Source: Escherichia coli (lineage in GTDB: Bacteria; Pseudomonadota; Gammaproteobacteria; Enterobacterales; Enterobacteriaceae). Taken from it: 64,000 nt of DNA. This document shows positions 245 to 3,314 of this stretch, in pieces. The position numbers and the translations under genes are program-made. Position 1 is the first letter of the stretch. Every line of letters starts with the position of its first letter. The DNA lies in the NCBI RefSeq assembly GCF_003790525.1, contig NZ_CP033635.1; one strand, 5' to 3'. The notes beneath the pieces are model-generated. The model was not told the DNA's origin. It did no database searches and worked only from the letters and a program-made list of their open reading frames with translations.

Positions 245-435
245 CTTTTGTTAACTCCTTTTTATAGATGCGGGAGGTAATTCCTCACCCCGGTGCCGAT
301 TTTCAGGCATCCTGATTTAACTTAGCACCCGCAACTTAACTACAGGAAAACAAAGAGATAAATGTCTAATCCTGATGCAAATCGAGCCGATTTTTTAATC
401 TTTACGGACTTTTACCCGCCTGGTTTATTAATTTC

Positions 436-466
436 TTGACCTTCCCCTTGCTGGAAGGTTTAACCT
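436..466 (+). promoter_or_regulatory. copA promoter with CueR (MerR-family) operator: -35 TTGACC, 19-bp spacer carrying the dyad CCTTCC-N7-GGAAGG, -10 TAACCT
   Basis: Dyad 440-458 lies exactly in a 19-bp spacer between -35 (436-441) and -10 (461-466), about 40 nt upstream of the copA ATG; typical MerR-type architecture. Confidence 0.75.
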
Positions 467-506
467 TTATCACAGCCAGTCAAAACTGTCTTAAAAGGAG
501 TGTTTT

Positions 507-3011
507 ATGTCACAAACTATCGACCTGACCCTGGACGGCCTGTCCTGCGGTCACTGCGTTAAACGCGTGAAAGAAAGTCTCGAACAGCGCCCGGATGTTG
601 AGCAGGCGGATGTGTCTGTCACTGAAGCGCACGTTACCGGGACTGCCAGTGCAGAACAGCTGATCGAAACCATCAAACAAGCGGGTTATGACGCATCTGT
701 AAGCCACCCAAAGGCTAAACCGCTGGCGGAGTCATCAATCCCGTCGGAAGCACTGACAGCGGTTTCTGAGGCGCTTCCGGCAGCGACCGCCGATGACGAT
801 GACAGCCAGCAGTTGCTGCTGAGCGGCATGAGCTGCGCCAGCTGTGTCACCCGCGTACAAAATGCGCTGCAAAGCGTACCGGGCGTCACTCAGGCACGGG
901 TAAACCTGGCGGAGCGTACTGCGCTGGTGATGGGCAGTGCCTCCCCACAAGATTTAGTGCAGGCGGTGGAAAAAGCGGGCTACGGTGCGGAAGCGATTGA
1001 AGATGACGCGAAACGCCGTGAGCGCCAGCAAGAAACCGCCGTCGCTACGATGAAGCGCTTCCGCTGGCAGGCGATTGTCGCACTGGCGGTGGGTATCCCG
1101 GTGATGGTCTGGGGGATGATCGGCGATAACATGATGGTCACCGCCGACAACCGCAGCCTGTGGTTGGTTATCGGCCTGATAACCCTGGCGGTAATGTTTT
1201 TCGCCGGCGGGCATTTTTACCGCAGCGCATGGAAAAGCCTGCTGAACGGTGCAGCGACGATGGATACGCTGGTGGCGCTGGGTACTGGCGTGGCGTGGCT
1301 CTATTCGATGAGCGTCAACCTGTGGCCGCAGTGGTTCCCGATGGAAGCGCGACATCTTTACTATGAAGCCAGTGCGATGATTATCGGTCTGATCAATCTC
1401 GGCCATATGCTGGAAGCGCGCGCACGTCAGCGTTCTTCTAAGGCGCTGGAGAAATTACTCGATTTAACCCCACCGACGGCGCGCCTGGTCACCGACGAAG
1501 GTGAAAAAAACGTGCCGCTGGCAGATGTTCAGCCAGGTATGTTACTGCGCCTGACGACCGGCGACCGTGTGCCGGTAGATGGTGAGATTACTCAAGGCGA
1601 AGCGTGGCTGGATGAAGCGATGCTGACGGGCGAACCTATCCCGCAGCAAAAAGGCGAAGGCGATAGCGTCCATGCCGGGACAGTGGTACAGGACGGCAGT
1701 GTGCTGTTTCGTGCCAGTGCGGTCGGCAGCCATACTACGCTGTCACGGATCATTCGCATGGTGCGCCAGGCCCAGAGCAGCAAGCCTGAAATCGGCCAAC
1801 TGGCGGATAAAATCTCAGCCGTATTTGTGCCGGTAGTAGTGGTTATTGCGCTTGTCAGTGCGGCAATCTGGTATTTCTTTGGTCCGGCACCGCAGATTGT
1901 CTATACCCTGGTGATTGCCACCACGGTGCTGATTATTGCCTGTCCGTGTGCGCTGGGACTGGCGACGCCGATGTCGATTATTTCGGGCGTCGGGCGGGCG
2001 GCTGAGTTTGGCGTGCTGGTACGGGACGCCGACGCGCTGCAACGCGCCAGTACGCTCGATACCGTAGTGTTCGATAAAACCGGGACGCTGACCGAAGGTA
2101 AACCGCAGGTTGTCGCAGTGAAAACGTTTGCTGATGTTGATGAAGCGCAGGCATTGCGTCTGGCGGCGGCACTGGAGCAAGGTTCCAGCCATCCGCTGGC
2201 ACGAGCGATCCTCGATAAAGCAGGCGATATGCAGCTGCCGCAGGTCAACGGTTTCCGCACATTGCGCGGGCTGGGCGTGAGCGGTGAAGCTGAAGGTCAT
2301 GCGTTATTGCTGGGCAATCAGGCGCTGTTAAATGAGCAACAGGTTGATACCAAAGCTATCGAAGCGGAGATTACTGCTCAGGCATCGCAAGGGGCAACGC
2401 CTGTGCTGCTGGCGGTTGACGGGAAAGCGGTAGCCCTGCTGGCTGTACGCGATCCATTGCGTAGTGATAGCGTGGCGGCGCTGCAACGCCTGCATAAAGC
2501 GGGATATCGTCTGGTGATGTTGACCGGGGATAACCCAACCACCGCCAATGCGATCGCCAAAGAAGCCGGGATTGATGAGGTGATCGCCGGGGTGCTGCCG
2601 GACGGTAAAGCCGAAGCGATTAAACGCCTGCAAAGTGAAGGACGTCAGGTGGCAATGGTGGGCGACGGCATTAACGACGCGCCAGCGCTGGCTCAGGCGG
2701 ATGTCGGTATTGCGATGGGTGGCGGCAGTGATGTTGCCATTGAAACCGCGGCGATTACCCTGATGCGCCATAGCCTGATGGGTGTTGCGGATGCGCTCGC
2801 GATTTCCCGCGCAACGCTGCGCAATATGAAGCAGAACCTGCTCGGTGCGTTTATCTACAACAGCATTGGTATTCCGGTCGCCGCCGGTATTTTGTGGCCG
2901 TTCACCGGTACGCTGCTTAACCCGGTGGTTGCCGGAGCGGCAATGGCGCTCTCGTCGATTACCGTAGTGAGTAACGCCAACCGGTTGCTGCGGTTTAAAC
3001 CGAAGGAATAA
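507..3011 (+). CDS. copA: Cu(I)-translocating P1B-type ATPase CopA (834 aa)
   Basis: ORF track 834 aa; two N-terminal heavy-metal-binding motifs ([16 protein letters not shown]), membrane CPC motif, DKTGT phosphorylation site, GDGINDAP hinge; AAAGGAG SD upstream. Confidence 0.97.
707..718 (+). other. copA: Programmed -1 ribosomal frameshift site inside copA (slippery heptamer C CCA AAG, then GGC TAA in the -1 frame), giving the 70-aa CopA(Z) metallochaperone
   Basis: Heptamer at 707-713 is in the X XXY YYZ register for the copA frame (codons 68-69 Pro-Lys); the -1 frame stops two codons later at 716-718, directly after the first HMA domain. Confidence 0.6.
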
Positions 3012-3059
3012 GTATGTCATTGCGGATGCGCTGCTTTAGGGTGGCGCATCTGGCATCGA

Positions 3060-3195
3060 CGCATGCCTGCCGGATGCGGCATAAACGCCTTATCCGGCCT
3101 ACGATTCAGGCACAGGGTTGTAGGCCTGATAAGACGCGTAAGCGTCGCATCAGGCAATGGTGCTCGGATGCCGGATGCCGGATGCGGCGATGTTT
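3060..3195. repeat. REP/BIME cluster (at least two inverted REP units plus a partial unit with a duplicated CCGGATG)
   Basis: GCCTGCCGGATGCGGC...CGCCTTATCCGGCCTAC and TAGGCCTGATAAGACGCG...CGTCGCATCAGGCA palindromic units typical of E. coli REP, in the copA-ybaP intergenic region. Confidence 0.8.
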
Positions 3196-3314
3196 TGGCA
3201 TTACGCGACCTTTTTGCACGTTTTCCCCGGCGTGCCAAATATTTAATCCGTCCCAACTCCATTTGCGCCATCCCTCACCGCGCGCTAGCATGATATTTCA
3301 CAAAGGGAGGTCGT

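Follow-up and report, generated by a model that had tools for sequence, protein, structure and literature searches.

The programmed −1 ribosomal frameshift cassette of Escherichia coli copA: comparative evidence and a model of its downstream pseudoknot

The copA locus and its reading frames

The first large gene of the window (the whole stretch of 64,000 nt of E. coli DNA that was analysed) was found to be copA, the zero-frame product of which is a Cu(I)-exporting ATPase with a Pfam domain order of two HMA domains, E1-E2_ATPase and Hydrolase (HAD). In the copA region the window shows 100% identity to E. coli CE10, SMS-3-5 and further strains, and 95–99% identity to the majority of 5,421 complete E. 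coli genomes. At the identical CE10 locus the gene is annotated as copA and is flanked by glsA and ybaP, the same neighbours as in K-12. The features of the locus are listed in Table 1.

Upstream of copA, a −35 hexamer (TTGACC, 436–441) and a −10 hexamer (TAACCT, 461–466) are separated by a spacer of 19 bp, and a 7-7-7 dyad is present (ACCTTCC/GGAAGGT, 439–445 and 453–459). A standard sigma-70 scan, which allows spacers of 16–18 nt, returned no match at this promoter, as is expected because of the MerR-type spacer of 19 bp. We take the operator to be that of CueR on the basis of established knowledge. Control of copA by CueR is known (Outten et al. 2000, as cited in PMC6747150), and under such control both products of the gene would therefore be made when copper rises.

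Codons 67, 68 and 69 of copA are CAC (705–707), CCA (708–710, Pro) and AAG (711–713, Lys), and because of these codon positions the CCCAAAG sequence falls in the X XXY YYZ register. As in a canonical −1 frameshift cassette, this is the zero-frame register of a translated ORF. Translation from position 707 reads P K G followed by a stop (CCC AAA GGC TAA), and the recoded product, CopA(Z), would run from M1 to H67-P68-K69-G70 and end in SHPKG. It consists of a single HMA domain (PF00403, E-value 8.4e-14, residues 8–62) carrying a CxxC motif, which is the composition of a CopZ-like chaperone, and its sequence relatives in the PDB include CopZ chaperones (such as 6ff2 and 1cpz) and metal-binding domains of Cu-ATPases. 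Binding and delivery of Cu(I), or protection alongside CopA, have been ascribed to CopA(Z) (PMC6771820, PMC6747150). A sequence-only reading of this DNA had placed the heptamer in the correct register at codons 68–69, had the −1 frame ending after one more codon (GGC, then TAA) and had equated the 70-aa product with the first metal-binding domain; it was borne out on each of these points.

Table 1. Positions of the copA features in the window, with the basis on which each was assigned
Feature	Position	Strand	Basis or remark
copA promoter with CueR-type operator	436..466	+	Hexamers read from the sequence; dyad by inverted-repeat search
Shine-Dalgarno sequence AAGGAG	495..500	+	Read from the sequence; 6 nt 5' of the copA ATG
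copA zero-frame CDS	507..3011	+	ORF; 834 aa, Cu(I)-exporting P1B-type ATPase with two N-terminal HMA domains
CopA(Z) recoded ORF, 70 aa	507..718	+	Zero frame 507..713, −1 slip, then 713..718 (GGC TAA)
CxxC metal-binding motif C14-G-H-C17 of the first HMA domain	546..557	+	Translation; inside the HMA match
Slippery heptamer C CCA AAG (P68, K69)	707..713	+	Sequence and conservation
Spacer between heptamer and stem 1, 6 nt, holding the −1 stop	714..719	+	From heptamer and stem 1 coordinates
−1 frame stop TAA	716..718	+	Translation from 707
Predicted stem 1, 5' arm	720..729	+	Core CCGCUG 720–725, extension 727–729
Predicted stem 2, 5' arm, GUCGGAAGC	743..751	+	In the single-sequence minimum-free-energy fold
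Predicted stem 1, 3' arm	753..762	+	Core CAGCGG 757–762, extension 753–755
Predicted stem 2, 3' arm, GCUUCCGGC	773..781	+	In the single-sequence minimum-free-energy fold

Over approximately 620–900 the window matches MG1655 base for base, that is from about 90 nt 5' of the heptamer to about 190 nt 3' of it. Within 480–900 the only departures from MG1655 are an additional A in the 5' UTR, a pair of synonymous changes (codons 1–40) and V38 here for I38 in K-12. K-12 copA is the same gene with the same heptamer, codons and −1 stop, and the differences are allelic only. In the K-12 RefSeq record copA (b0484) is given two coding sequences, one for the ATPase and one joined from two pieces and named "soluble Cu(+) chaperone" (YP_009518752.1, 511168..511379). 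The latter spans 211 nt from start to end, which corresponds to 507..718 of the window and to an end at 718, so that the locus agrees in orthology and position both with b0484 and with its chaperone CDS. For the identical locus in CE10, PGAP lists the ATPase only, without a chaperone CDS.

Alignment of the window with CE10, SMS-3-5 and, over the ~620–900 interval, K-12 showed the heptamer to be undisrupted. The proposed match to the recoding event reported for E. coli copA is upheld by this identity of the cassette with that of K-12 and by the shared end at 718, and the further claim that one gene gives two products is supported by the joined K-12 CDS, by the literature and by the comparative tests described below.

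Conservation of the frameshift region

The heptamer is not above chance by itself, with five copies of CCCAAAG in the window compared with 8.2 ± 2.7 in shuffled sequences. Only the copA copy lies in the slippery register within a real long ORF; the other four are in the wrong register or within a spurious antisense ORF. A second in-register heptamer in copA, A AAA AAC at 1505, was rejected as a functional site as it was found in only three of 58 orthologues. Conservation and context put the copA site far above chance.

Among E. coli genomes, the 99-nt cassette sequence (700–798) was found exactly in 5,320 of 5,422, compared with 802 of 5,416, 673 of 5,422 and 120 of 5,408 for control 99-mers at 560–658, 900–998 and 2000–2098, respectively. 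The 40-mer at 690–729 was exact in 5,381 of 5,422 genomes, with one mismatch somewhere within it in 41.

An ortholog scan using one genome per species yielded 79 loci, 61 of them from Enterobacterales and 18 from more distant species. All 61 Enterobacterales loci carry CCCAAAG or CCCAAAA in register, with the −1 stop exactly one codon on in every case. The genera represented include Escherichia, Citrobacter, Enterobacter, Pantoea, Erwinia, Serratia, Pectobacterium, Dickeya, Yersinia, Photorhabdus, Xenorhabdus, Hafnia, Edwardsiella and Budvicia, along with others. The motif was absent from the 18 loci outside Enterobacterales, a small and biased sample that sets no taxonomic limit.

Codon-level counts were made on 58 full-length copA orthologues. 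Codon 67 is represented by 11 different codons, all of which end in C (58/58), and is followed by CCA at codon 68 (58/58) and by AAG (36 orthologues) or AAA (22 orthologues) at codon 69. Codon 70 is NNT in all 58 while specifying six different amino acids, and codon 71 always starts with AA or GA, again with a varying amino acid; a UAA or UGA is therefore always present in the −1 frame. Codon 72 is CCG throughout (58/58). The third positions are thus held to bases that preserve the heptamer and the −1 stop alike, whereas the amino acids vary, a pattern that selection at the protein level cannot produce.

Synonymous variation was measured as the fraction of differing codons among orthologue pairs sharing the amino acid. 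The 15 lowest 9-codon windows along the 834 codons all lie within codons 65–92, with values of 0.15–0.22 compared with a gene mean of 0.52. These codons correspond to nt 699–782, i.e., the heptamer and the predicted downstream structure. At codons 55–66 the value is ~0.59, slightly above the gene mean, and no conserved RNA-level signal was seen upstream of the heptamer by this measure. The residues directly upstream of the frameshift site differ between genera, and the nascent-chain effect that has been reported for this site has no obvious conserved sequence correlate in the orthologue data. Conservation beyond coding need was thus found in both of the forms considered, suppression of synonymous variation and covariation (see below), and the comparisons confirm strong purifying selection on the cassette as RNA.

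The position of the cassette relative to the metal-binding domains was also noted. The whole cassette, with CCCAAAR, the −1 stop after one further codon and the pseudoknot of stems 1 and 2 modelled below, is shared by every Enterobacterales copA locus retrieved, and in each it sits directly before the last, membrane-proximal metal-binding domain. The predicted product is a two-HMA chaperone of 139–150 aa in Serratia, Pectobacterium, Brenneria, Dickeya, Yersinia, Photorhabdus, Xenorhabdus, Hafnia, Edwardsiella and Budvicia diplopodorum, and a protein of 206 aa with three HMA domains in Budvicia aquatica. That a cassette conserved across the order gives multi-HMA chaperones in other Enterobacterales is a suggestion of roughly even standing, and it may already be described.

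A pseudoknot model for the downstream RNA

Inspection of the orthologue sequences downstream of position 713 suggested an H-type pseudoknot, predicted to begin 6 nt after the heptamer and thus within the ~5–9 nt at which a stimulatory structure would be looked for. The pairing is our own model and may differ from the published one. Stem 1 would be formed by a core and an extension, with the position between them (726/756) usually unpaired. Stem 1 with its extension was evaluated at −11.1 kcal/mol and stem 2 at −14.2 kcal/mol.

Pair counts were made on an alignment of 62 sequences (60 distinct). Standard pairs occupy 88.7% of the alignment cells, as against 17–47% when the 3' partners are slid by 1–3 columns. 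Changes on both sides of a pair (compensatory changes) were observed in 11 of the 19 pairs, including seven of the nine in stem 2. Those in stem 1 include C723-G759 to U-A in five Pantoea-type sequences, C720-G762 to A-U in Erwinia persicina and U724-A758 to C-G in Pantoea sp. 1.19. None of 500 shuffles reached the observed pairing or covariation score, although these counts are uncorrected for relatedness and are not true probabilities; the slid-partner control, which keeps relatedness, points in the same direction.

RNAalifold, which is blind to pseudoknots, returned the stem 1 core by itself. A nested fold of 714–800, computed with a tool that does not model pseudoknots, showed no extra stability compared with shuffles (z = −0.86). 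A scan of 300–1100 against Rfam 15 gave chance-level matches only, the best of which reached 14.5 bits where the gathering score is 44. The lack of an Rfam family says nothing about the reality of the element.

Interpretation and comparison with known systems

Taken together, the site almost certainly serves the programmed −1 ribosomal frameshift by which E. coli copA gives rise to CopA(Z), and no observation contradicted this reading. The frameshift is already published and annotated, so that the site is genuine without being new. The K-12 copA/CopA(Z) −1 frameshift is reportedly the subject of Meydan et al. 2017 (Mol Cell 65:207) and Drees et al. 2017 (Mol Microbiol 106:635). In a 2016 review of recoding, copA is described as having been flagged by ribosome profiling, with efficient −1 frameshifting giving a 70-aa putative chaperone (PMC5009743). 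Frameshifting dependent on the heptamer has been reported for the identical K-12 sequence (PMC9548414, PMC7558416), as has a drop in ribosome density on E. coli copA (Loughran et al., PMC9548414), and copA, dnaX and prfB are the only three chromosomal frameshifts of E. coli that are well characterised (PMC10861913). The event is taken as established in several other publications (PMC6182138, PMC10187127, PMC6771820, PMC10861913, PMC6747150).

In the mechanism proposed here, ribosomes on the copper-inducible copA mRNA would reach the heptamer with the P site over CCA (P68) and the A site over AAG (K69), where a fraction of them, probably holding tRNA-Pro and tRNA-Lys, would slip one base back to pair with CCC and AAA. 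The pseudoknot 6 nt past the heptamer would resist unwinding at the mRNA entry channel, impede translocation and so favour the slip, to which the nascent chain would also contribute according to the literature. Shifted ribosomes would read GGC, stop at the UAA of 716–718 and release the 70-aa soluble first HMA domain, and unshifted ribosomes would make the 834-aa Cu(I) pump. The sequence anatomy and the selection acting on it are shown by the present analysis; the occurrence of the frameshift, its efficiency and the copper protection afforded by its product are taken from the literature; the exact pairing of the pseudoknot and the tRNAs that slip are what we infer.

It could be supposed that the heptamer arose by chance in a linker where no meaningful shifting takes place, its conservation being due to protein constraint on H-P-K-x-x-P-L. 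The lack of enrichment of CCCAAAG in the window would agree with this, as would the conservation of the zero-frame P-K..P-L residues, and a few X XXY YYZ heptamers are expected by chance in a gene of 834 codons, of which the one at 1505 is a second example. However, the 1505 heptamer is not conserved, unlike the site at 707, and protein constraint does not account for the third positions that are fixed in 58 of 58 orthologues (NNC at codon 67, NNT at codon 70, and the prolines as CCA and CCG). It is likewise at odds with the gene-wide synonymous minimum at codons 65–92 and with the compensatory pair changes in both predicted stems, and a frameshift on the identical K-12 sequence has been published and annotated. 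On account of the third-position pattern, the synonymous minimum and the covariation, a chance heptamer under protein constraint is effectively refuted and is improbable in the extreme. Slippage of the RNA polymerase at the C3A3 run shares with ribosomal slippage the property of giving a −1 product from a homopolymeric tract. However, known sites of transcriptional slippage need much longer homopolymer runs (reviewed in PMC5009743), and those at the copA site are just 3 + 3 nt. In addition, a conserved pseudoknot 6 nt downstream, as predicted here, is a hallmark of ribosomal −1 frameshifting, and the literature places the copA event on the ribosome. A frame change made during transcription is accordingly unlikely at copA, and its probability is close to nil.

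A different origin for the short MBD1 protein would be a truncated copA transcript or proteolysis of CopA as the main source, in place of slippage. Drees et al. (2017; cited in PMC7558416) name 'differential transcript formation' in their title next to frameshifting, and the pseudoknot or hairpin region could in principle be a processing or pause site. However, no intrinsic-terminator-like site was found by the terminator scan on the + strand near 700–800, and no U run follows stem 2. Given the result of the scan, we reject termination of the transcript as the principal way in which the short product is made. Moreover, neither a truncated mRNA nor proteolysis would select a −1 stop one codon past the heptamer in 61 of 61 taxa. 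Such a main route is therefore very improbable; a short transcript could be an addition to frameshifting, not a replacement for it.

With programmed ribosomal frameshifting as the preferred reading, copA can be compared with other systems. The stimulators in dnaX are an upstream Shine-Dalgarno-like element and a stem-loop, whereas the stimulator in copA is predicted to be a pseudoknot, and the P-site codon is AAA in dnaX and CCA in copA. In other respects the two are alike, both being chromosomal −1 shifts (A AAA AAG in dnaX, giving gamma/tau) with AAG in the A site, decoded by the single E. coli tRNA-Lys, with a downstream RNA structure and with a −1 stop that closely follows the shift and yields a truncated functional product (PMC10861913, PMC6771820). 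CopA(Z) also resembles the stand-alone chaperones of the CopZ/Atox1 type in being ~70 aa long with a single HMA domain and a CxxC motif. However, CopZ is encoded by a separate gene, whereas recoding sets CopA(Z) free as the first domain of the pump (PMC10187127, PMC6747150).

For human ATP7B, an orthologous Cu-ATPase, the proposed frameshift site is likewise CCCAAAG, as given by an oligonucleotide sequence (PMC9548414). That companion claim, the only one that Loughran et al. dispute, has been refuted on the grounds that there was no drop in ribosome density, no synonymous-site conservation and a variable heptamer, and that the reporter result was an artefact (PMC9548414). Unlike ATP7B, copA shows suppressed synonymous variation as well as an invariant heptamer, the two sequence-based properties in question.

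The present analysis contributes independent confirmation from comparative data, a pairing model of the pseudoknot supported by covariation, and the observation that automated annotation of this strain leaves out the second product. The copA locus encodes a membrane Cu(I) pump together with a soluble copper chaperone, which matters mainly for annotation, and the recoding that gives CopA(Z) explains the presence of a CopZ-type chaperone in E. coli without a copZ gene.

Allele and annotation of the chaperone product

The chaperone-coding part of copA in the window was found to differ from that of the E. coli MG1655 (K-12) reference by one amino acid, codon 38 encoding valine (GTC; V38) rather than the isoleucine (ATC; I38) of K-12, and by two synonymous changes. 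One additional A is also present directly 5' of the Shine-Dalgarno sequence (window TTAAAAGGAG compared with K-12 TTAAAGGAG). The copA locus of E. coli CE10 (L001, NC_017646.1) is identical to window positions 400–3100. No chaperone CDS was found in the PGAP annotation of this locus, the sole entry being "copper-exporting P-type ATPase CopA", whereas the joined chaperone CDS is annotated in the K-12 RefSeq record. The missing CDS is an annotation gap, one which extends across nearly all of the non-K-12 genomes listed.

Second heptamer and the copA-ybaP spacer

Another in-register slippery heptamer, A AAA AAC, occurs further into copA and opens a -1 ORF of 26 codons. As only three of the 58 full-length Enterobacterales orthologues have it, this heptamer most likely arose by chance.

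Downstream of copA, ybaQ (b0483), which is annotated at the corresponding position in the K-12 RefSeq record, is missing from the 303 bp spacer preceding ybaP. Comparison with K-12 by blastn indicated that ~370 bp of K-12 sequence is absent here, the sole stretch left being ~64 nt (87.5% identity) around the copA-facing end of ybaQ. Likewise, no gene is annotated between copA and ybaP in CE10. The spacer carries several REP-like motifs (see table).

Positions of features in copA and its flanking regions
Feature	Position	Location
Additional A	494	window, 5' of copA
Codon 38	618	copA
Second heptamer, A AAA AAC	1505–1511 (codons 334–335)	copA
Spacer	3012–3314	between copA and ybaP
REP-like motif GCCGGATG	3069 and 3170	copA-ybaP spacer
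REP-like motif GCCTGATAAG	3124	copA-ybaP spacer
REP-like motif CATCAGGC	3148	copA-ybaP spacer
In-frame TAA region	2812–2842	Erwinia persicina locus (L038)
Stem 1 hairpin region	2810–2850	Mixta locus (L040)
Heptamer of extra-HMA copA	~3007–3013	each full-flank locus

Atypical loci in Erwinia and Mixta

The copA of Erwinia persicina CFBP8797 has a zero-frame TAA eight codons past the heptamer, reading TCA TAA TCT where its relatives have TCA GAA TCT. Beyond this stop the frame is intact again, and stem 1 carries a compensatory A-U pair. The gene may be a pseudogene or the TAA a sequencing error; alternatively, this strain may make the chaperone alone from that start.

In Mixta sp. Marseille-Q2659, stem 1 forms a perfect hairpin of 10 bp (CCGCUGUCAG / CUGACAGCGG) whose loop is 14 nt long, and the region between its strands contains no arm of stem 2. 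The stimulator of this locus thus resembles a plain stem-loop and not a pseudoknot. The zero frame of this copA stops after 333 amino acids.

Longer predicted products in other Enterobacterales

An extra N-terminal HMA domain was identified in copA of Serratia, Brenneria, Pectobacterium, Photorhabdus, Dickeya, Budvicia, Edwardsiella, Yersinia, Xenorhabdus and Hafnia (loci L036, L041, L043–L047, L049–L052, L054, L055 and L060–L062). The conserved frameshift site is positioned after the second HMA domain in these genes, and the predicted -1 product is therefore 139–150 aa in length with two CxxC motifs. For Budvicia aquatica (L050), a product of 206 aa containing three HMA domains is predicted.
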